A DNA stretch of 10,893 nt from an uncultured Pseudomonadota bacterium. Its GTDB lineage: Bacteria; BMS3Abin14. This document shows, one piece after another, positions 278-9,667 of this stretch. Both the position numbers and the translations under genes were made by a program. The stretch covers positions 19,918-30,810 of the forward strand of contig CAYVSA010000019.1 in the NCBI GenBank assembly GCA_964454175.1, read 5' to 3'. How positions within the stretch are numbered: position 1 is the stretch's first letter; the number at the start of each line of letters is the position of its first letter. Under the pieces are notes generated by a model that worked only from the letters and a program-made list of their open reading frames with translations, made no database searches and was not told the DNA's origin.

Positions 278-2932
278 ATGATGATCCTTTCTAAAACCGG
301 GGCCCAACGGCCCAGGGCCACATTCCGTGTTGTCTGCATTATCAGCATCCTGCTGGTTCTGCTGGTTGCACTCCCCACATTGATGCCGGGGCCATTTTCA
401 TTTCTCCATCCCCTGGCAATCGACACAGATCCGGAGAACATGCTCGAAGCCCATGAACCGGCCAGGGTTTTTCACAACCAGATGAAGAGCGAATTCGGCC
501 TCTATGACATGGTCGTGGTTGGAGTCATCGACACAAAACATCCTGACGGCGTGTTCAATGTTGATACTCTGCGCAATGTTTACAACCTGACTGAATACGC
601 CCGCACTCTCCAGTGGGAGAAGAACGGCATCAGCCAGGGAGTGATCGGAGTGGACCTCATAGCTCCTTCCACGGTGGACAATATTGAGCAGGCCGGACTG
701 GGCACTGTGCGTTTCCAGTGGCTAATGAGTTCCCCGCCCGAGACAGAAAAGGAAGCCCGGGAGATAGCAGACAAGGCAAGCCGCATTCCATTTCTTGATG
801 ACACCCTTATCTCGAAAGACCGTAAGGCCCTTGCCCTTTACATACCGATCACATCCAAGGACATCAGCTACGAGGTTGCCTCAATGCTGAAGGACAAGCT
901 GGCTTCCTTCTCTGGAAGTGAGGAGTATCATATAACCGGTCTACCCATTGCCCAGGACCAGTTCGGGATAGAGATGTTCAAGCAGATGGCTATTTCTGCG
1001 CCCCTGGCAATGCTCCTTATCTTCGGACTTATGTGGCTATTCTTCCGCCACGTGAGATTGATAATCTCACCAATGATAGTAGCAGTTTTCTCCGTCATCG
1101 ATACCATGGGGCTTCTGATTGCCAGCGGCAATACGATTCACATCATGAGTTCCATGATACCCATTTTTATTATGCCCATTGCGGTACTGGATGCGGTCCA
1201 CATACTTTCTGAGTTTTTCGATCGCTACCCACAGATCCAGGACCGGGAAAAAACACTTAACCTGGTGATGGAAGACCTTAACAAACCAATGTTGTTTACC
1301 TCTTTGACTACAAGCGTCGGTTTCGCGTCCCTTACTCTGACACCAATACCACCCGTGCAGATTTTTGGCCTGTTCGTAGGGCTTGGGGTCATATTTGCCT
1401 GGATCCTGACTGTTACGCTGATCCCGGCTTACATCATGCTGATGCCCGAATCGTCTCTGGCTGGGTTCGGCAATCCCCATGAGTATAACGAAGAAAAAGG
1501 GACCTCCCTGCTCGCCCGTTTACTGGCCGGGACTGGTAGGTTTGCTTTTAACAGGGTCAAGCTCATTCTCGTATCCCTCCTGATATTTGGAGGCGTTGCA
1601 GTGTACGGCATCACTCGGATCCAGATAAACGACAATCCTGTAAAGTGGTTCACCAGCAGCCACGAGATACGCATTGCAGACAGGGCGCTTAACGACCGAT
1701 TCGGCGGAACTTACATGGCATATTTGACCCTTTCTGCCGAAAAGACCAATGAGGGATCTGCTGATGCGGTTAATTACCTCAGGGCAAAACTCACTGCCAT
1801 GCCCGATCAGGTGGCAAAACCACTGGTTGCAGCTTTTGACAAAGATATCGCTGCCGGCCTTACGATAAATAAGGACATCATTGCGGACCTTTCCGACAGA
1901 GCGCAGAAGTTGCAGGACGAGGCGATTGACGATGCTTCATGGGACGCCTGGGATAGTGCTCTCCTTTCCCTCAGCAAACTCGCCCAGAAAGACGAGATAT
2001 TCAAGAAGCCGGAACTGCTTCACTATGTCGAACGACTTCAGGAATACCTCGCAGAAACCGGCCTTGTGGGCAAAAGCAACAGCCTTGCCGACATCGTAAA
2101 GACCGTTCACAGGGAACTTCTCCTGGGTAAGGACGAGGAGTTCAAGATCCCGCAGACGTCTGCCGCTGTGGCCCAGACCTTGATCACATATCAGAACAGC
2201 CACCGCCCCCAGGATCTGTGGCACTTTGTGACCCCCGACTACACCCGGACCAATCTCTGGCTTCAGCTCACCAGCGGCGATAATGTTGATATGAAACGTG
2301 TGATAGATGCCGTTGACAGCTTTTTCAGCAAAAACCCACCGCCTGCCCCGCTGAACTACGATTGGTTTGGACTCACCTATATCAACGTGATATGGCAGCA
2401 AAAGATGGTCTCTGGAATGCTCAACGCGTTTCTCGGCAGTTTTTTGATCGTGCTCGCCATGATGGCATTTTTGTTCCGCTCATTCTGGTGGGGGCTCCTC
2501 TCCATGGTCCCCCTCACGATGACGATAATCATGATCTATGGGCTCATCGGACTTATCGGGAAAGACTACGACATGCCCGTGGCGGTCCTTTCATCGCTGA
2601 GCCTCGGGCTTGCCGTTGACTACGCAATACACTTCCTGGCCCGCAGCAGGGCTCTGAGGGAGGAGCATCAGTCCTGGAGGGAAACAGCAGCAGCCGTGTT
2701 CGGAGAACCAGCCCAGAGCATTACGCGGAATGTGATCGTCATTGGCGTAGGATTCCTGCCCCTGCTGGCGGCTCCCCTGGTACCTTACAAGACGGTGGGA
2801 GTGTTCATATCGGCGATTCTCGTACTGGCTGGCGTCGCCACGCTGATAATCCTGCCTGCGCTGATAACTCTTTTTGAAAAACGCCTGTTTAAAGGATTTG
2901 ATCCCACTGAAGGAGAAGGTGAAGGAACATGA
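278..2932 (+). CDS. MMPL-family / RND-superfamily inner-membrane transporter (884 aa)
   Basis: Two repeats of one TM helix, a large periplasmic loop and five TM helices. RND-type acidic TM motifs 'IAVLDAVHIL' and 'GLAVDYAIHFL' are present, plus 'PMLFTSLTTSVGFASL', typical of MMPL domains. The exact start is uncertain because the RBS is weak. Confidence 0.9.
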   Translation: MMILSKTGAQRPRATFRVVCIISILLVLLVALPTLMPGPFSFLHPLAIDTDPENMLEAHEPARVFHNQMKSEFGLYDMVVVGVIDTKHPDGVFNVDTLRNVYNLTEYARTLQWEKNGISQGVIGVDLIAPSTVDNIEQAGLGTVRFQWLMSSPPETEKEAREIADKASRIPFLDDTLISKDRKALALYIPITSKDISYEVASMLKDKLASFSGSEEYHITGLPIAQDQFGIEMFKQMAISAPLAMLLIFGLMWLFFRHVRLIISPMIVAVFSVIDTMGLLIASGNTIHIMSSMIPIFIMPIAVLDAVHILSEFFDRYPQIQDREKTLNLVMEDLNKPMLFTSLTTSVGFASLTLTPIPPVQIFGLFVGLGVIFAWILTVTLIPAYIMLMPESSLAGFGNPHEYNEEKGTSLLARLLAGTGRFAFNRVKLILVSLLIFGGVAVYGITRIQINDNPVKWFTSSHEIRIADRALNDRFGGTYMAYLTLSAEKTNEGSADAVNYLRAKLTAMPDQVAKPLVAAFDKDIAAGLTINKDIIADLSDRAQKLQDEAIDDASWDAWDSALLSLSKLAQKDEIFKKPELLHYVERLQEYLAETGLVGKSNSLADIVKTVHRELLLGKDEEFKIPQTSAAVAQTLITYQNSHRPQDLWHFVTPDYTRTNLWLQLTSGDNVDMKRVIDAVDSFFSKNPPPAPLNYDWFGLTYINVIWQQKMVSGMLNAFLGSFLIVLAMMAFLFRSFWWGLLSMVPLTMTIIMIYGLIGLIGKDYDMPVAVLSSLSLGLAVDYAIHFLARSRALREEHQSWRETAAAVFGEPAQSITRNVIVIGVGFLPLLAAPLVPYKTVGVFISAILVLAGVATLIILPALITLFEKRLFKGFDPTEGEGEGT

Positions 2933-3723
2933 AAAACCTGATCATTACACTAGCAGCCGCTGCTGCGATAATATCTCTTTCCGGTCCAGCTTTTTGTATG
3001 GACGCTAAAGAGGTCGTAGCCAGGGCAAATCATGCATCCTACTATCAAGGCAAGGACGGCAAGGCCTCGGTGCACATGTCCATCGTCGACGGCGAGGGAC
3101 GGGAGCGAACCCGGGATTTTGTGATCATCAGGACGGATGTTGATGACAAAGTGGATACCGAGCAGAAGTTCTATGTTTTCTTCAGGCGGCCCGCTGATGT
3201 CTCCAGGACAGCTTTTATGGTGTGGAAGCACCCGGGCGCGGATGACGACCGATGGATGTACCTGCCGGCCCTCGACCTGGTAAAAAGGATAGCTGCCAGC
3301 GATGAGCGGACCAGCTTTATGGGTTCTCACTTCTTCTACGAAGATGTATCCGGCAGAAACCCGGAAGAGGACGAGCACAAACTTGCCGAGACTACTGAAA
3401 ATTTTTTCGTTCTGGACAGTACACCCAAGGACAGGAGCAAGGTAGAGTTTGCCCGCTATCGCACCTGGATACACAATAAGACCTTCATTCCTGTCAAGAG
3501 TCAGTTCTTTGACGATTCCGACAAACCCTACCGATCATACGAGGCTCTGAAGGTTGAAACGGTCGATGGCTATCCCACAGTTACGAAATCCCGTATGAGC
3601 GACAGCCGCATTGGCGGGCAGACCACAATTGACTACCGAAATGTAAAGTATGATATCTCCTTGCCGGACAATATTTTCACCGAAAGGTATTTGAGAAATG
3701 CACCTCGTAAATACCTTCGCTAG
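2929..3723 (+). CDS. LolA-like 'outer membrane lipoprotein-sorting' periplasmic protein (264 aa)
   Basis: N-terminal signal peptide (MKNLIITLAAAAAIISLSGPAFC) and family motifs 'DDDRWMYLPALDLVKRIA...SFMGSHFFYED' and 'IFTERYL'. ATGA overlap with the MMPL stop codon, preceded by a purine-rich RBS (GAAGGA). Confidence 0.85.
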   Translation: MKNLIITLAAAAAIISLSGPAFCMDAKEVVARANHASYYQGKDGKASVHMSIVDGEGRERTRDFVIIRTDVDDKVDTEQKFYVFFRRPADVSRTAFMVWKHPGADDDRWMYLPALDLVKRIAASDERTSFMGSHFFYEDVSGRNPEEDEHKLAETTENFFVLDSTPKDRSKVEFARYRTWIHNKTFIPVKSQFFDDSDKPYRSYEALKVETVDGYPTVTKSRMSDSRIGGQTTIDYRNVKYDISLPDNIFTERYLRNAPRKYLR

Positions 3724-5137
3724 ATCTACGGCCGTATTATTGGTCCTCTGTCTCATGCTGTCTGCGGGGGCTGGTGGCGCCCTCGCAGATGAGCCTGAGC
3801 TGCCTGCCGGCCTGTTTGGGGGGTCATCACCCTCCGGCTCTGACACCGGGACAGAGCCAGGGCTCCCATCCGGCCTGGGAGATATAGGGACAGGTAAGGC
3901 CACAGACCGTGATGCGGTGTCAGAGCAAAACATTCCCACCGATTTCCAGGGCTTTGAAGAAGCCCGTTTTGGACTGCGTACCGGCAATGACCCGGATCAG
4001 GCCGACGCTGTTCTCAGGGAAACCAGGGTTCAGCTGTCGTTGGGGAAAGACGGGGAAACTACAACTTACCGTCTCACTGCCGACCTGCTCTACGACGGAC
4101 TGGCAGAGGGATTAAAAGTCGACCTTGACGAAGGAACGGGATGGATCGACATCAGGGAAGCAAGTATTCTCATTAGAGCTGCTGTCTGGGCCGACATCAA
4201 GGCAGGCAGACAGATATTAACCTGGGGAACCGGAGATCTCATTTTTATAAACGATCTGTTTCCCAAGGACTGGAACTCCTTTTTCTCCGGCCGGGATCTT
4301 GAGTACCTCAAGGCGCCCTCAGACGCCGTGAAAGTTTCCGTGTTCAGCGAGTCCGCGAACCTTGATATCATCTACACACCCGTGTTCGACCCCGATCGTT
4401 TCATCGATGGTCGTCGAATATCGTATTACAACTCTTCACAGGGCGCTGTGGTGGGCAGAAGTGTACCTGTCCTTACTGACAGGCCAAAGGACGCTTTCGA
4501 GGACGACGAGATCGCCCTTCGCCTCTACCGTAACCTTGGTTCCTGGGAAGCGGCCCTGTACGGCTACCAGGGGTTCTGGAAGAGTCCTAACGGGAGTGAC
4601 CAGACAACGGGACTATCCATTTTTCCCCGCTTAACCGTCCTCGGAGCAAGTTTCAGGGGGCCTGCCGCGGGCGGGATCAGTCACGCAGAGATCGGATACT
4701 ACAACAGCAAAGACGATGGAAACGGGAGCGACCCCTTCATCCGAAACAGCGAATGGAGAGTTCTGGTGGGTTTTGAGAGGGAACTAATGTCGGAACTCAC
4801 AGGCGCATTCCAGTATTATCTTGAGCATATGGCTGATCACAACGCCTACATCGCCGCACTTCCCAGCAGTTCGCCGGCCAAGGACGAGAACCGCCACGTT
4901 ATAACCCTGCGGCTCACACGCCTCCTCATGCACCAGAATTTGATATTGTCCCTGTTTAACTTTTACAGCCCTGGTGACGAGGATGGCTATCTCAGGGCAG
5001 GCGGTACATATAAGGTGTCGGACTCCTGGCAGGTGGATGCCGGCGGTAATTTCCTTTACGGAAAAGAAAATCATACCTTTTTCGGACAGTTCCAGGACGC
5101 CTCCAACCTGTATGCCGGCCTCAGGTACAGCTTCTAG
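3698..5137 (+). CDS. Probable outer-membrane beta-barrel protein (DUF1302-like neighbourhood), hypothetical
   Basis: Signal peptide ending ...GALA-D, a Pro/Gly-rich linker, the 'DIKAGRQILTWGTGD' motif common in such porin-like barrels, alternating amphipathic strands and a C-terminal aromatic BAM-type signal (LYAGLRYSF). The start overlaps the upstream gene by 26 nt and is uncertain. Confidence 0.7.
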   Translation: MHLVNTFARSTAVLLVLCLMLSAGAGGALADEPELPAGLFGGSSPSGSDTGTEPGLPSGLGDIGTGKATDRDAVSEQNIPTDFQGFEEARFGLRTGNDPDQADAVLRETRVQLSLGKDGETTTYRLTADLLYDGLAEGLKVDLDEGTGWIDIREASILIRAAVWADIKAGRQILTWGTGDLIFINDLFPKDWNSFFSGRDLEYLKAPSDAVKVSVFSESANLDIIYTPVFDPDRFIDGRRISYYNSSQGAVVGRSVPVLTDRPKDAFEDDEIALRLYRNLGSWEAALYGYQGFWKSPNGSDQTTGLSIFPRLTVLGASFRGPAAGGISHAEIGYYNSKDDGNGSDPFIRNSEWRVLVGFERELMSELTGAFQYYLEHMADHNAYIAALPSSSPAKDENRHVITLRLTRLLMHQNLILSLFNFYSPGDEDGYLRAGGTYKVSDSWQVDAGGNFLYGKENHTFFGQFQDASNLYAGLRYSF

Positions 5138-5199
5138 CTCCTGGATCACCAGAGTAAAATTAGCTGCCCCTGGACTAATTGCAGAGTGGTGTTCGAACA

Positions 5200-5283
5200 A
5201 ATTGTTTACGTTGGACGTTGGTCGTTGGACGTTGGACGGTGAATTGTTCACGTTGGACATTGGACGTTGGGCGTTGGACACTG
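5200..5283. repeat. Heptamer (ACGTTGG) tandem tract nested in a 42-bp direct duplication
   Basis: 5200-5241 is aattgttt-acgttgg-acgttgg-tcgttgg-acgttgg-acggtg. 5242-5283 is aattgttc-acgttgg-acattgg-acgttgg-gcgttgg-acactg. Read directly from the sequence. Confidence 0.95.
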
Positions 5284-5421
5284 TCTTACGGTGTCAGAGC
5301 AAAAACTCCTAAAGTTCCGACCACATTGTCACAACTTCCTTCACAATGCGCCTTCCCAAAGGTAAACGGCTGGTGATAGATTGTAATGGATACTCGATCA
5401 AGGCCTGCCCTGGAGAGGTGC

Positions 5422-7032
5422 ATGGAAAGAACAAAAATCCTGAAAAAATTAAAGCGGGATGAACCGTTTGATCTATTGGTCATCGGGGGTGGTGCGACCG
5501 GATGCGGAGTCGCGCTTGACGCCGCAAGCAGGGGCCTTTCAGTCGCGCTTGTGGAAAAGAACGATTTCGGAGAGGGCACAAGCTCCAGGAGCACCAAATT
5601 ACTTCACGGAGGTGTGAGATATCTCGAGATGGCCGTGAAGCATCTCGATCGCAGCCAGTATCATCTTGTTAGAGACGCGCTCAGGGAACGGGACATTCTT
5701 CTCAGAATTGCCCCTCACCTGTCCCGCCGTATTTCACTGGTAACACCCATCTATAAGTGGCTGAAAGTACCCTACATCTTCGCAGGCCTGAAGATTTATG
5801 ACCTCCTGGCGGGGACCAAGGGGATCGGGCAAAGCAGGTTGATGGGGTCCAAAAACGCCCTGAAACGCTTCCCCATGCTTCATGCCGAGGGTCTGAAGGC
5901 TGGTGTTTTATATTACGATGGTCAGTTCAACGATGCCAGAATGGTCATCTCCATTGCCCTGACCGCAGCAAAGTACGGAGCTATTATAGCAAATCACGTA
6001 GACGTTACAGGCTTTATCAAGAAGGGAACAACTTTAACCGGAGCAGTTGTAACTGACTCAATAACGGGAGAGTCATGGGATATAACCGCCAGGACAGTCG
6101 TCAATGCGACTGGGCCTTTTACTGACATTATTAGAACAATAGACGAACCTGCATGCCGGCCGATGCTCAAAGTAAGCTCGGGTATCCACATTGTACTCGA
6201 TAAAAAATTCGCCCCGCCGGATACGGGGCTGCTTATACCGAAGACTGAAGATGGCAGGGTACTGTTCGTATTGCCCTGGGAAGGACATGCCCTTGTGGGC
6301 ACTACTGACGAACCTGCACAGGTGTCAGAGCACCCGGAACCCACAGATGATGACGTTTCGTATCTTATACGTCACCTGAGGCGTTACTTTGATATTCAGG
6401 TGTCAGAGCAGGACGTCAAATCGGTCTGGTCGGGCCTGCGGCCCCTGATCTTCGACCCAAAGGCATCGGATACTGCAAAGCTCACAAGGGATCACGTAAT
6501 TGAAAGAAGCAGATCCGGGCTTGTTACTATCGCGGGAGGGAAGTGGACTACATACCGTAAAATGGCCCAGGACACCGTTACCTTCATCGTAAAGCATTCC
6601 GGCCTTACCCCAACAAACAGGTGCTGCACCCACCGGATACCATTGATCGGGGCTGAAAAATACAGGCAGGATGGTCCTGATCTGCTGACCGCTGAATTCG
6701 GAATCGATCCACCTGTATCACGCCATCTGTACAGAGCATATGGTGATCGCGCAGATAAAATCGCAGAAATAGCTTCCAATGGATTTTCGGAACGTCTTTT
6801 TCCGGATCACCAGTATCTGGAAGCGGAAATTGTTTATGCCGCCAGGGAGGAAATGGCTGTGAGATGTGTGGATGTCTTGTCAAGAAGGACGTCAATGGCT
6901 CTGCTTGACAGGGCAGCTGCTGCCAGGGCCATACCCAGGGTCGTTGACCTGATGGCTGAAGAGCTTGGATGGAGCCGCGATCGTTGTCATCGTGAAACCG
7001 TAATTGCAGAAGAAAGGATCAAAGTTCTGTAG
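5422..7032 (+). CDS. glpD: FAD-dependent glycerol-3-phosphate dehydrogenase/oxidase
   Basis: FAD-binding motif 'DLLVIGGGATG', plus 'GTSSRSTKLLHGGVRYL', 'WSGLRPL' and 'GGKWTTYRKMA', all hallmark GlpD motifs. GGAGAGG precedes the ATG at 5422; the alternative start is 5386. Confidence 0.92.
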   Translation: MERTKILKKLKRDEPFDLLVIGGGATGCGVALDAASRGLSVALVEKNDFGEGTSSRSTKLLHGGVRYLEMAVKHLDRSQYHLVRDALRERDILLRIAPHLSRRISLVTPIYKWLKVPYIFAGLKIYDLLAGTKGIGQSRLMGSKNALKRFPMLHAEGLKAGVLYYDGQFNDARMVISIALTAAKYGAIIANHVDVTGFIKKGTTLTGAVVTDSITGESWDITARTVVNATGPFTDIIRTIDEPACRPMLKVSSGIHIVLDKKFAPPDTGLLIPKTEDGRVLFVLPWEGHALVGTTDEPAQVSEHPEPTDDDVSYLIRHLRRYFDIQVSEQDVKSVWSGLRPLIFDPKASDTAKLTRDHVIERSRSGLVTIAGGKWTTYRKMAQDTVTFIVKHSGLTPTNRCCTHRIPLIGAEKYRQDGPDLLTAEFGIDPPVSRHLYRAYGDRADKIAEIASNGFSERLFPDHQYLEAEIVYAAREEMAVRCVDVLSRRTSMALLDRAAAARAIPRVVDLMAEELGWSRDRCHRETVIAEERIKVL

Positions 7033-7057
7033 CATGCAAATTCCCGGAAAACATATG

Positions 7058-7945
7058 TTAACCTATGTTAACTTTGTCCACGTTAACACCTTGCCTGGCC
7101 TGTCTGAATGCCAGCAAGCTGTGACACATAAGTGTTATCAGCAACAAACTTCCTCCCACAGCCGTTTCCAGGGCGGGCTTCTGACCAACAACCAACCAGA
7201 CCCAAAGCGGACCGAGAACTGTCTCAAGCAGCAGTATGAGACCGACTTCCGGCGCCGGTATCAACCTTGGTGCTATTGTCATTATTACAAGGGGAACGGG
7301 CAGAACTATGGTCCCCATTAACAACAAGGGTATGACGTCACCTCGGCTTATACTGACAGCTCCAGCCAACGGTAAAACCACGACAGCACACAATAACCCT
7401 CCAATTCCTGCGGCCGGGATCATGCTCACCCCGCGAAAGACCCTGACAATAATAAAATTAAGTGCCATGGAAAGGGAGGTCACCAATGCAAGAAGATCGC
7501 CGGCCATGGAACCATGGCCTGCACTACCCCACATGAGGATCACGATCGATAAAAGACCTGCGCATGCTGCTACCCATGTTCTCGTCGGCACAAGTTCTCG
7601 GAGCAAAAGCCTGGAAAGCACAGCTGCAAAAAGCGGGGATGCGGCAACGATCACCAATGCATTTGCGGCCGTGGTAATTGTTACAGCGGCAACAAAAGAT
7701 ATTGTGGAAGTAGCGATCAGGATGCCTACAACAACCCCACCGATACCTATCCCGGTTAGCTTCTTGAGTGTGTCAAGCCTGTAAACTGTTATCATACCGG
7801 CGAATATGGTGAGTGCAATCAGGCTGCCCCTCCAGAAAAGCAGGGTCCACCTGTCTGCAGATACAAGGTAAATGAGGAGCGTATCGGGGCTCAGGACCAG
7901 TACACCCAAAAACATCAACAAGACCCCGCGAAGATAATCCGTCAT
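7058..7945 (-). CDS. EamA/DMT-family transporter
   Basis: About 10 hydrophobic helices in two repeats, with 'APRLIPAPEVGLILLLETVLGPLWVWLVVGQKP', a typical EamA C-terminal motif. The start is either the ATG at 7945 or the TTG at 7963. Confidence 0.88.
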   Translation of the reverse strand: MTDYLRGVLLMFLGVLVLSPDTLLIYLVSADRWTLLFWRGSLIALTIFAGMITVYRLDTLKKLTGIGIGGVVVGILIATSTISFVAAVTITTAANALVIVAASPLFAAVLSRLLLRELVPTRTWVAACAGLLSIVILMWGSAGHGSMAGDLLALVTSLSMALNFIIVRVFRGVSMIPAAGIGGLLCAVVVLPLAGAVSISRGDVIPLLLMGTIVLPVPLVIMTIAPRLIPAPEVGLILLLETVLGPLWVWLVVGQKPALETAVGGSLLLITLMCHSLLAFRQARQGVNVDKVNIG

Positions 7946-8091
7946 AGATTTATCATATATCAAATTTCACGTCTTTGATAATAGCAGAGCTCATATCCAT
8001 GTTGTCAGAACAAAACAGTTGATCCCCATCTGAGTATCACCTGCAAAGAACCTTGTCTTGTTGGAGATCTGTTTTTCTCTTATACCGGAGA

Positions 8092-8982
8092 TTATTTCTT
8101 CGATTTATTCTTTACCGGCTCTGATACGAAGGTAGTATCTTTGCGTTTCACTCCTACAGGGATTTCATATTCACACGGTACTTTCGTTTGACAAAGACCG
8201 CATCCAGTCACTGAAGTGCCAAACTTTTTGGCCAGGGCTTTGAAGGGAGGCCCGTAAGTGTATTTCATACAGCGGGCCTTATCGTGCCCATCAATGGAAA
8301 TTGCTCCTACGGGGCACCTTTTTATACACTCTCCGCACTCCTTACCCATACACGTCAGGCAGTTCTCGCGGTAATCCCAGTATGGAAATTCCGAAGGTTC
8401 CATTACAATATTTGTAACTACACTTCCACACCTGTGGGCAATTCCTCTTGGGGTAATCAGCCCTCTGTTCAGACTGAACGTACCTAGTCCCGCAGCATAG
8501 GCAATGTGGCGTTCGGACCACCTGGATGCCAATCCGACTTCTGGGTCTGTCACCCTGGACCACGCCTCAAGGAGTACGGGCGCAACGGCGGTGCCGCCCT
8601 GCTTAATCAGGAACTCTTCAACCAGCCTTCGCAGCTCGTCGTTGAACTGCTCTCCAAAATCCCTCGTTTGGGCCCATTCACGCGAGGGAAACTTATCCTG
8701 TTCCCTGTTGCTGTGGCGGGTCCGTTCCGTGATGGGAAGTATCCAGGAAACTACAGTACCCCCAAAGGGCTCTTTCGAATTTGTGAACATTTCCAGGACC
8801 CTGGCGGGTGTCCAGTGGAATGGGCCTATTAATTTAGTGTACTCATCGAAAAGCTGATTATTTACAGAAGCAAATCCCACTAAAGGTGATTCGAAGTAGC
8901 AGGTTCCATCAGTATTTCGGTTGCCGGGGTGGTTTCTGACGTACTCTTCGATCTTTTGTTTGACGAGACTTTTAATATTCAT
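8092..8982 (-). CDS. Epoxyqueuosine reductase (QueG)-like 4Fe-4S protein, probably corrinoid-dependent
   Basis: 'WSERHIAYAAGLGTFSLNRGLIT' matches the QueG/reductive-dehalogenase-type segment. Two Fe-S Cys groups follow: C..CGECIKRCP and C...GCGLCQTKVPC. The true substrate cannot be determined from the sequence. Confidence 0.75.
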   Translation of the reverse strand: MNIKSLVKQKIEEYVRNHPGNRNTDGTCYFESPLVGFASVNNQLFDEYTKLIGPFHWTPARVLEMFTNSKEPFGGTVVSWILPITERTRHSNREQDKFPSREWAQTRDFGEQFNDELRRLVEEFLIKQGGTAVAPVLLEAWSRVTDPEVGLASRWSERHIAYAAGLGTFSLNRGLITPRGIAHRCGSVVTNIVMEPSEFPYWDYRENCLTCMGKECGECIKRCPVGAISIDGHDKARCMKYTYGPPFKALAKKFGTSVTGCGLCQTKVPCEYEIPVGVKRKDTTFVSEPVKNKSKK

Positions 8983-9109
8983 ATTGTACTAACACCAGGA
9001 AATCCCCCGCGATTAACACAACACGTGGCAGAGGGCGATAACATTGTAGATCCAGCGCCATGATACCCAGTGTCAAAGCAGGTACCAGGTATCAGATCAT
9101 ATAATATGC

Positions 9110-9553
9110 TCATTGCTCTGACACCGTGTATCCGGGCCAGTTAGCCCCGGCTGCGCCAGCAAGGTTATCACCCAGTTTTTTAACTATCCTGACGGGCAGA
9201 TCCTCTGTTTTTCTGAAGCGCAGCTCCAGGACTTTGAATTTAAAGATCTTTTTTTCCATGATCGTTATGTCACGCCATGGCACGAACATAGGTGAGTGCC
9301 CGGGACGGAACATAAAGAACATTGCCAGGTAAAGTCCTCTGGAGTCGGCTCCTATAGTTGCGCAGCCCTTATATCCCATACCCAGGCGAGTAGTAAGGTT
9401 CTGGAATCGCCAAACCTTTCCTGCAAAGCCGCCAGTGTGAGGGTACTGAACCGCCATCCTTGCCCATCCAGTGAGACGTGATACAAGAAAAATTACAACA
9501 ACCCACAAGACGAGGAAAAACAATACAAAATCTTTTGGTGTAAAGGATTCCAT
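9110..9553 (-). CDS. Hypothetical membrane-anchored protein (147 aa)
   Basis: N-terminal TM helix followed by a soluble beta-rich region ('GLYLAMFFMFRPGHSPMFVPWRDI'). The ATG-started ORF fills the gap and is co-oriented with its neighbours. Confidence 0.65.
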   Translation of the reverse strand: MESFTPKDFVLFFLVLWVVVIFLVSRLTGWARMAVQYPHTGGFAGKVWRFQNLTTRLGMGYKGCATIGADSRGLYLAMFFMFRPGHSPMFVPWRDITIMEKKIFKFKVLELRFRKTEDLPVRIVKKLGDNLAGAAGANWPGYTVSEQ

Positions 9554-9619
9554 AACATCTATTTAGCCGTTTTTTTCGAGAAAGGGAACAATTTGATAGC
9601 CAAATTGCAAAGAGAGTTC

Positions 9620-9667
9620 ATAGTGTCTGACACCAATCATAAGTGCTCTGACACCAATCAGACACCA
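9620..9667. repeat. Imperfect ~20-bp tandem duplication built on the dispersed motif
   Basis: atagtgtctgacaccaatc / ataagtgctctgacaccaatc / agacacca, in the divergent intergenic region between the hypothetical gene and the ychF-like gene. Confidence 0.85.

Follow-up and report, generated by a model that had tools for sequence, protein, structure and literature searches.

The 12-nucleotide repeat GGTGTCAGAGCA is probably a cognate repeat of TIRYT-type Y1 transposases

A 10,893-nt stretch of DNA (positions 19918–30810 of contig C19, referred to here as the window) was analyzed together with its source assembly, G000, the genome of an uncultured Pseudomonadota bacterium comprising 2,174,552 bases in 135 contigs. 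The element under study is a 12-nt word, GGTGTCAGAGCA, which recurs throughout the window and which we relate here to genes for Y1/HUH transposases of the TIRYT type. A first-pass annotation, made from the window sequence alone, had reported six exact and two single-mismatch copies, with the core GGTGTCAGAG present eight times, and had placed them on both strands, in four genes and in intergenic DNA; our recount agreed on all of these points. The genes concerned are an MMPL-type gene, a DUF1302-like gene, glpD and an open reading frame (ORF) at 9110–9553, and copies were also located in two intergenic regions. When up to two mismatches were allowed, 11 matches were found in the window, as against 0.95 ± 1.01 in dinucleotide-preserving shuffles, and not one of the 200 shuffled sequences attained that number. 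A search of the window against Rfam matched no family.

The single-mismatch copies GGTGTCAGAGTA (1333–1344, minus strand) and GGTGTCAGAGCC (3836–3847, minus strand) lie antisense within the MMPL-family transporter gene (278–2932) and the DUF1302-like gene (3698–5137), respectively. The latter gene also carries an exact copy in the sense direction (3916–3927, plus strand), where the frame taken from the coordinates reads xxG GTG TCA GAG CAx (V-S-E-Q). Further exact copies on the plus strand are found in intergenic DNA at 5290–5301, with the glpD start (5386) 85 nt downstream, and at two places within glpD itself (site 1, 6321–6332; site 2, 6399–6410), neither of which is an insertion. A two-mismatch site is present at 8001, and two degenerate copies of the same grade (9069–9080 and 9088–9099, plus strand) face an exact copy on the minus strand at 9114–9125, which overlaps the final codons and stop of ORF 9110–9553 (...V S E Q stop). 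Between this ORF and the divergent ychF (9843), a minus-strand tandem trio at 9623–9666 is made up of a head-only unit, GGTGTCAGACAC (9623–9634), an exact copy (9644–9655) spaced 21 nt from it, and a degenerate head, GGTGTCTGA (9658–9666). The head-only unit and the degenerate head had been overlooked in the first-pass annotation. A TTGGACN heptamer array (~5205–5279) and ACTGTCTTAC directly precede the exact copy upstream of glpD, and the same composite of heptamer array and ACTGT(C/T)TTAC occurs twice upstream of the response-regulator gene of contig C90 (L008: 3245–3307, 3447–3462), across an N gap.

Across G000, the exact word was found 45 times (29 and 16 copies by strand) on 19 contigs, or approximately once per 48 kb; six of these copies are in the window, which represents 0.5% of the genome length, so that the density of one per 1–1.5 kb put forward initially holds locally and not genome-wide. 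A control word, GGTGTCAGAGCA read backwards, had no copies. The commonest 14-mer of the genome is GGTGTCAGAGCAAA, with 26 copies; the remaining top 12- to 14-mers are heptamer-type tandem repeats (TTGGACG/TTGGACA, GAAACCA, GGAACCT). Exact, one-mismatch and two-mismatch copies numbered 45, 39 and 199, as against ~0.26, 9 and 154 expected at equal base frequencies; hence the excess has a sharp peak at the exact word, and exact copies outnumber those one mismatch away, a comparison that had been suggested as a check. Apart from a weak preference for A-A-T 3' of the word, sequence information stops at the edges of the 12-mer. By a crude gene map (87.5% coding), 29 copies are intergenic, and because three of the 16 "coding" copies fall in a false N-terminal extension of the response-regulator ORF, at least 32 of the 45 are considered intergenic. 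The terminal 150 bp of contigs together represent 1.9% of the genome and contain six copies, which indicates that the repeat breaks the assembly and that 45 is a lower bound; contigs C11, C27, C100 and C90 stop in arrays.

The population of the word in G000 is dispersed and mostly intergenic, and consists of solo copies, direct pairs 18–25 bp apart, and small arrays. Among neighboring sites at most 200 bp apart, 24 pairs are direct, four convergent and four divergent, and half of the direct spacings (12/24) are 18–25 bp. A partner within 60 nt is direct for 24 of the 45 copies and inverted for two, and in paired copies the word is exact and the spacers differ. In all, 20 clusters hold two or more sites. 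The word itself is composed of a conserved 8-nt head, GG(T/G)GTCAG, and a tail, AGCA. Partial units retain exactly 8 nt in 15 of 22 cases (10 of 14 when the ambiguous L055 array is left out). This is also the size of the conserved head, and it suggests a joint at that position. GGTGTCAGAGCA alone has no predicted structure; the mean folding energy of 52-mers around 43 copies was −3.2 kcal/mol, as compared with −4.2 kcal/mol for 400 random intergenic 52-mers, and read directly, neither end of the word holds GTAG or GTGG. The variant GGGGTCAGAGCA has 12 copies in G000. A further array system was observed on contig C37 (13744–14894, L004), where inward-facing arrays bracket a gene for an ArsR-family helix-turn-helix (HTH) protein, upstream of an S-adenosylmethionine-methyltransferase gene; three plus-strand copies are followed by six minus-strand sites, including head-only units with a period of 15.

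The copies within genes were compared with the corresponding positions in relatives. The protein context of glpD site 1, (E/Q)VSEH, is ancestral, and the relative G011 has the exact word at this position of its own glpD; in the glpD of G014 and in one G003 paralog it is one mismatch off. At site 2, G000 reads GTG TCA GAG CAG where relatives have, for example, GTA TCC GAA TCG (QVSES to QVSEQ). The gene for glucose-6-phosphate dehydrogenase (G6PD) on contig C20 (24428–24472, L003) has a 33-bp in-frame insertion (EICSDTSEKDG...) in a variable loop, which contains an antisense copy and is absent from the orthologs of all 11 relatives; a second copy lies in an adjacent variable loop, and a third is substitution-like. 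The word was found in none of the 11 relatives' G6PD loci and upstream of no relative's glpD, so copy positions are lineage-specific, which argues against conserved operators. Two other coding regions carry repeated copies. In the gene for an AMIN/DUF3108 protein on contig C8 (6490–6522, L009), the linker contains a tandem duplication of 7 codons (…ELVSEQT ELVSEQ…) that is built from two sense copies spaced 21 nt. On contig C90 (2758–3021, L008), an 87-amino acid (aa) ORF with a signal-peptide-like start has two antisense copies that encode FALTP twice; a partial msrA-like ORF (2179–2544) follows downstream, and this may be a broken second msrA.

To follow the word beyond G000, exact copies were counted in other genomes. 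Thirteen of 15 other genomes of the same family, which represent several genera, contain it (0–27 copies each over the 15), and the copy positions are not orthologous between genera. Outside the family, the word was found once each in four of 25 genomes and was absent from the others. A tandem scan was then carried out on one genome per prokaryote species for two copies 6–25 nt apart, and yielded 65 loci, whose GC content is 31% to 75%; the 33 records concerned come from many phyla. Twelve records are multi-locus, including an Acidimicrobiales metagenome-assembled genome (MAG) with 14 loci, an unclassified MAG with six, a Leptospirales MAG with five, a Sandaracinaceae MAG with three, and two loci each in two Ca. 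Uabimicrobium genomes, Ca. Spongiihabitans and others. The 21 single-locus records may in some cases be chance tandem repeats and were counted as support only where a Y1 gene was found; the Salinispora, Streptomyces and Mycobacterium records of this kind gave no Y1 match. Spacers are lineage-specific, with a period of 19 or 22 in Uabimicrobium and 12 in the Acidimicrobiales MAG, and head-only units (GGTGTCAG) are interleaved in the distant arrays. Whole-genome counts of exact copies in five distant genomes were 17, 19, 26, 57 and 77. The range of bacteria that share the identical 12-mer extends from Planctomycetota to Acidimicrobiia and Myxococcota. A sequencing adaptor or assembly artefact was ruled out by the closed genomes and isolates that carry the word, the lineage-specific spacers and the GC-matched flanks.

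Examination of the genes beside these arrays pointed to a common neighbor. In a scan of the ORFs flanking the 65 loci, two of 127 ORFs (at two loci) proved to be IS200-like Y1 domains beside arrays. In the closed 9.5-Mb genome G042, 18 of 19 exact copies are found within 5.3 kb around a 237-aa Y1 gene, and in the closed 4.4-Mb genome G041, seven of 17 lie 119–371 nt upstream of a 228-aa Y1 gene, with a one-mismatch inverted copy after its stop. The Acidimicrobiales MAG (G044) has a 221-aa Y1 gene with copies on both sides, and the 3' end of the gene itself contains copies (L147: 5782–5817), the C-terminus being VSEQVSEQVSEQ, so that the protein ends in ...VSEQVSEQVSEQVSDE.... Ten further distant genomes were searched and five of them gave Y1 matches; the word was present at one mismatch or less in six of eight Y1 loci of the Sandaracinaceae MAG (G049) and in two of six in G053. 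Overall, exact copies adjacent to Y1 genes were observed in five of 15 distant genomes (G041, G042, G044, G049 and G053). The extended head GGKGTCAGAG occurs within 700 bp of 19 of the 38 TIRYT-like genes that we collected, as against ~0.006 expected per locus at equal base frequencies, and the commonest geometry is inward-facing, with the head outermost on both sides. The Sandaracinaceae MAG contains at least eight TIRYT-like matches (L161, L163–L168), seven of them with ORFs of 305–322 aa, of which two that were compared are 83% identical; most of these genes have word arrays at their ends, and the set resembles an active multi-copy element more than a single domesticated gene.

The array-flanked proteins (191–306 aa) match Pfam Y1_Tnp, and their best NCBIfam match is "REP-associated tyrosine transposase", at 55–73 bits and so below the cut-off of 80. 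All of them have an NH[VYF]H motif, and Yxx(x)N(P/M) was present in all but the 191-aa protein of G053, which has NHVH and no Y motif that was picked up; the motif pairs are NHVH and YIELNP in G041, NHVH and YIELNM in G042, NHYH and YIPRNP in G044, and NHFH and Y[LV]HANP in G049. Weak matches to Bac_DnaA_C, HTH_23 and Sigma70_r4 were detected in the tails of four of the eight longer members scanned, which included head-flanked paralogs and proteins of the G000 family, while the three shortest proteins showed no tail domain. Enzymes flanked by the exact word share only 24–33% identity with one another. The words beside paralogous enzymes are related to GGTGTCAGAGCA but distinct from it: the flanks of G042_b, a paralog in G042 with 48% identity, consist of GGTGACAGACT, those of the G004 gene of GTTAAGTTG and those of the G012 gene of GGGGTCAGGCCGGG.

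These features can be set against published descriptions. TnpA-Y1 subclass 2.1 is characterized by NHVH or NH[YF]H, a YIELNP or Y[IV]HLNP-like motif, a median length of 238 aa and an HTH-like C-terminal tail, and is equated with TIRYT in the sections consulted of Quentin et al. (2018, PMC6006769), where no REP-like sequences were found near genes of the subclass. According to the parts consulted of Di Nocera, De Gregorio and Rocco (2013, PMC3733652), TIRYT genes are flanked by inverted repeats that share GGGGWSAS, the gene together with its flanking repeats is called a "TIRtron", and in some genomes these terminal inverted repeats (TIRs) are moderately abundant families of singles, dimers and clusters. 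The 8-nt head GGTGTCAG fits the GGGGWSAS consensus, as given in the portions consulted of the two papers (PMC3733652; PMC6006769), at seven of eight positions, and GGGGTCAGAGCA fits it at all eight. The first-pass annotation had not recognized the word as a described motif. This holds for the exact 12-mer, which was not found for bacterial repeats among the literature matches listed, all of them on eukaryotic or unrelated topics, though the TIR lists that supplement PMC3733652 and PMC6006769 may include it; it does not hold for the head, given its fit to the consensus in the text consulted of PMC3733652. Judged by their sequences, the enzymes fit TnpA-Y1 subclass 2.1, i.e., TIRYT.

Taken together, the adjacency of word and gene, the co-variation of enzyme paralogs with their flanking words, and the fit to the published GGGGWSAS make it probable that GGTGTCAGAGCA is the cognate short repeat of TIRYT-type Y1/HUH transposases (TnpA-Y1 subclass 2.1). 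The flanks with a shared head at Y1 genes of the G000 family, the GGGGTCAGGTC repeats around a truncated TIRYT gene in G000 and the partial units of 8 nt also speak for it, as do traits expected of a mobile repeat: the excess of exact copies, their largely intergenic location, positions that are not shared with relatives, the G6PD insertion and the copies at contig ends. By analogy with REP/RAYT and IS200/IS605 systems, the Y1 enzyme would recognize the word, cut and rejoin single-stranded DNA at or beside it, and seed new copies in trans. A local "stutter" could expand the arrays, with the joint mostly after base 8, and copies would occasionally land in frame in tolerant protein loops. The copies in G000 would have been made by an enzyme that is either unassembled or has since been lost. 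A bolder version of this proposal is one that we put forward only tentatively: that an HUH/Y1 clade has recognized the exact 12-mer since ancient times, the word staying fixed across at least six phylum-level lineages despite 24–33% enzyme identity, and that this clade, unlike the characterized Y1 transposases, acts on non-hairpin direct arrays, cuts after base 8 and writes its copies as array "stutter" and in-frame loop patches, the G000 population possibly persisting without an intact enzyme.

A number of observations weigh against the assignment to TIRYT enzymes, and the first of these concern G000 and its family. A Pfam-based scan of G000 yielded no Y1 gene; the single Y1 match, a remnant on contig C103 (E = 7e-13), came to light only by tblastn with the array-flanked proteins. 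Its HUH motif, HYHLL, is kept, and the homology runs for ~75 residues and stops short of the tyrosine region. Inverted copies of GGGGTCAGGTC at 2230 (+) and 2671 (−) enclose the remnant, and the whole measures ~450 bp end to end (C103: 2230–2682). The remnant is closest (~50% identity) to Y1 proteins of ~290 aa from its own family and adjoins a zinc-dependent alcohol-dehydrogenase-like gene. From this bracketing of a truncated gene, the C103 element appears to be an internally deleted TIRtron with a different tail. GGTGTCAGAGCA was not found within the C103 gene at up to two mismatches, and no intact TIRYT gene was found in G000. Because the assembly has only the truncated gene, the maker of the G000 copies is presumed to be unassembled or lost; if it was lost, the copies would represent an orphan repeat population. 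The Y1 genes of the family carry flanks that share the head (GGTGTCAGAGAC in G010, GGGGTCAGAGCA/GGGGTCAGAGTT in G001, GGGGTCAGGCCGGG in G012), but the exact word is at none of 12 family Y1 loci, one of which has a one-mismatch copy. Presence of Y1 genes and word count do not go together in the family: G001 has two Y1 genes and no copies, and G014 and G008 have 16 and seven copies, respectively, and no Y1 match.

Further observations of this kind come from the distant genomes and from what has been established for related enzymes. In G043, G045, G046, G051 and G054, all of which have Y1 matches, none of the loci returned showed the word next to a Y1 gene; G045 has 77 copies, yet none is Y1-adjacent in those loci, and in G043 (Ca. 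Uabimicrobium sp. HlEnr_7) arrays of seven and 16 exact copies are more than 240 kb from any Y1 match. G043 has 31 Y1-family matches, most of them of ~250 aa. Five of the 15 distant genomes gave no Y1 match at all. Our literature search found no biochemical assay of any TIRYT. To our knowledge, every Y1 transposase studied recognizes hairpins, and GGTGTCAGAGCA forms none. Moreover, both glpD copies are substitution-like rather than insertions and are not an obvious product of cut-and-paste or copy-in; neither these copies nor the lack of a hairpin is explained by a known mechanism.

Comparison with the TIRtrons and with other Y1-associated repeats clarified where the present system agrees with and departs from them. 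As in TIRtrons, the enzymes are Y1/HUH proteins of ~190–330 aa with NH[VYF]H and YxxxNP, several of them with HTH-like tails; in part of the genomes examined the genes are bracketed by repeats with a GGGGWSAS head, which form moderately abundant singles, dimers and clusters in some genomes; and gene presence and repeat abundance are not simply correlated. The differences are (i) that a sharp 12-mer, mainly in direct tandems with lineage-specific spacers, takes the place of a long inverted repeat, (ii) that the exact 12-mer is common to many phyla beside enzymes only 24–33% identical, and (iii) that G000 has a repeat population but only a truncated gene with another tail (GGGGTCAGGTC). The repetitive extragenic palindromic (REP) sequences and REPINs associated with RAYT proteins (E. 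coli TnpA-REP; Pseudomonas REPINs) are likewise short extragenic repeats that flank a low-copy domesticated Y1 gene, with occasional in-frame genic copies and with repeat and enzyme variants that co-vary; our word, in contrast, lacks the GT[AG]G foot, palindrome, hairpin and inverted doublets, and its copy number is far lower. The REP-like alternative mentioned in the first-pass annotation, together with its suggestion to look for RAYT transposases, is the one that the evidence favors, since RAYT-like (TIRYT) genes of distant genomes have the word at their flanks, but with neither hairpin nor GT[AG]G foot the word is not a classic REP. The IS200/IS605 elements (IS608, ISDra2) belong to the same superfamily of HUH and tyrosine enzymes and have short, specific, end-adjacent sequences that define cleavage; they differ in their subterminal hairpins, in the lack of terminal arrays, whether inverted or direct, and in their multiple copies, whose transposase genes are near-identical.

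Of the other explanations, the one that fared best, though we regard it as unlikely, is that the arrays have been exapted as binding sites for a host or domesticated DNA-binding protein, for example, the HTH tail of a TIRYT-derived protein, so that pairs spaced by two helical turns would serve in regulation or in shaping the local nucleoid and would be kept by selection and not by transposition. Such an origin would agree with the confinement of information to the 12-mer while spacers diverge, with the 12 of 24 direct spacings at 18–25 bp, with the substitution-like glpD copies, including the Ser-to-Gln change, and with an identical word beside enzymes of 24–33% identity; many copies also adjoin stress or redox genes (msrA, msrB, G6PD, isocitrate dehydrogenase, DsbA-like, usp, csp). 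It is difficult to reconcile with the lack of positional conservation (none of 11 G6PD loci, no glpD upstream region, and none of 19 orthologous or paralogous regulator loci at up to one mismatch), with an orientation that is inconsistent relative to neighboring genes, and with the many copies at sites where a promoter would not be looked for, since they follow terminators or separate convergent genes.

A more specific regulatory role, as the operator of the OmpR-family two-component regulator on contig C90, defining a stress regulon, is highly improbable. OmpR-type regulators bind direct repeats, a copy is located 29 nt upstream of the regulator ATG, and nine of the 45 copies, the densest cluster of all, are on the 6.6-kb C90, around msrA, msrB and the regulator–kinase pair. 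Nevertheless, homologs of the regulator (E ≤ 1e-40) were found in 12 of 15 relatives, and their 19 loci have no copy at up to one mismatch; G001 has a regulator of 63% identity and no copies, G002 has 17 copies and no regulator match, and the word occurs in phyla far beyond the reach of the regulator. An OmpR-type regulator as the reader of the word was rejected on the basis of these orthologous loci.

We give hardly any credence to a DNA-uptake signal, i.e., a dialect akin to the DNA uptake sequence (DUS) of Neisseriaceae or the uptake signal sequence (USS) of Pasteurellaceae that is spread by biased uptake and recombination. Like DUS and USS, the word is short, asymmetric and over-represented on both strands and is tolerated in ORFs; exact copies exceed one-mismatch copies, and glpD site 2 was made by point changes, as in uptake sequences. 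However, at one copy per 48 kb, as against ~1 per kb, it is ~50-fold sparser than DUS and USS, it is strongly clustered in direct tandem arrays, and it is tied to transposase-like Y1 genes; the identical tandem word is present in 33 records from many phyla at 31–75% GC, whereas uptake dialects are lineage-specific.

Equally implausible is a replichore-polarized or terminus signal of the Chi, KOPS, Ter or matS type, for which an asymmetric, over-represented word would be expected, but whose preferred strand should flip between replichores. Mapping of strand against origin and terminus, which had been suggested initially, was done in two closed relatives, and with dnaA rather than a GC-skew origin as the proxy for the origin, the counts by arm were +10/−3 and +4/−2 in G010 and +2/−4 and +4/−7 in G002; there was no flip, and copies are few and clustered. 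Thus, the headline claim of the first-pass annotation, that the word is an uptake-like or chromosome signal, found no support, in view of its density, its clustering, the cross-phylum tandems and the absence of a strand flip.

Other candidates were set aside: a sigma-54 or extracytoplasmic function (ECF) promoter, RfaH ops, NusB/E boxA and the DnaA box gave no gap-free or correctly spaced alignment to their consensuses, promoter or leader roles being unlikely in any case because copies lie between convergent genes, and Tn7, Mu or IS21-type ends were discarded because a scan of 64 neighboring ORFs detected neither DDE nor rve nor any other transposase domain.

If GGTGTCAGAGCA is indeed the cognate repeat of TIRYT-type enzymes, the commonest long word of this genome would be assigned to the class of selfish or domesticated DNA named TIRtron/TIRYT, and the tempting reading of it as a new DNA-uptake dialect would be removed. 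The combination of a GGKGTCAG head and a Y1 gene could then serve as a marker in annotation, for a repeat that breaks short-read assemblies and enters housekeeping enzymes such as G6PD in frame. For specialists, the interest would lie in the same 12-mer beside very divergent enzymes and in hairpin-free direct arrays that fall outside the known Y1 mechanisms. Should the tentative proposal of an ancient recognition word also be true, the persistence of the population in G000 without an intact enzyme would mean either action in trans from an unassembled gene or exaptation of the arrays by the host.

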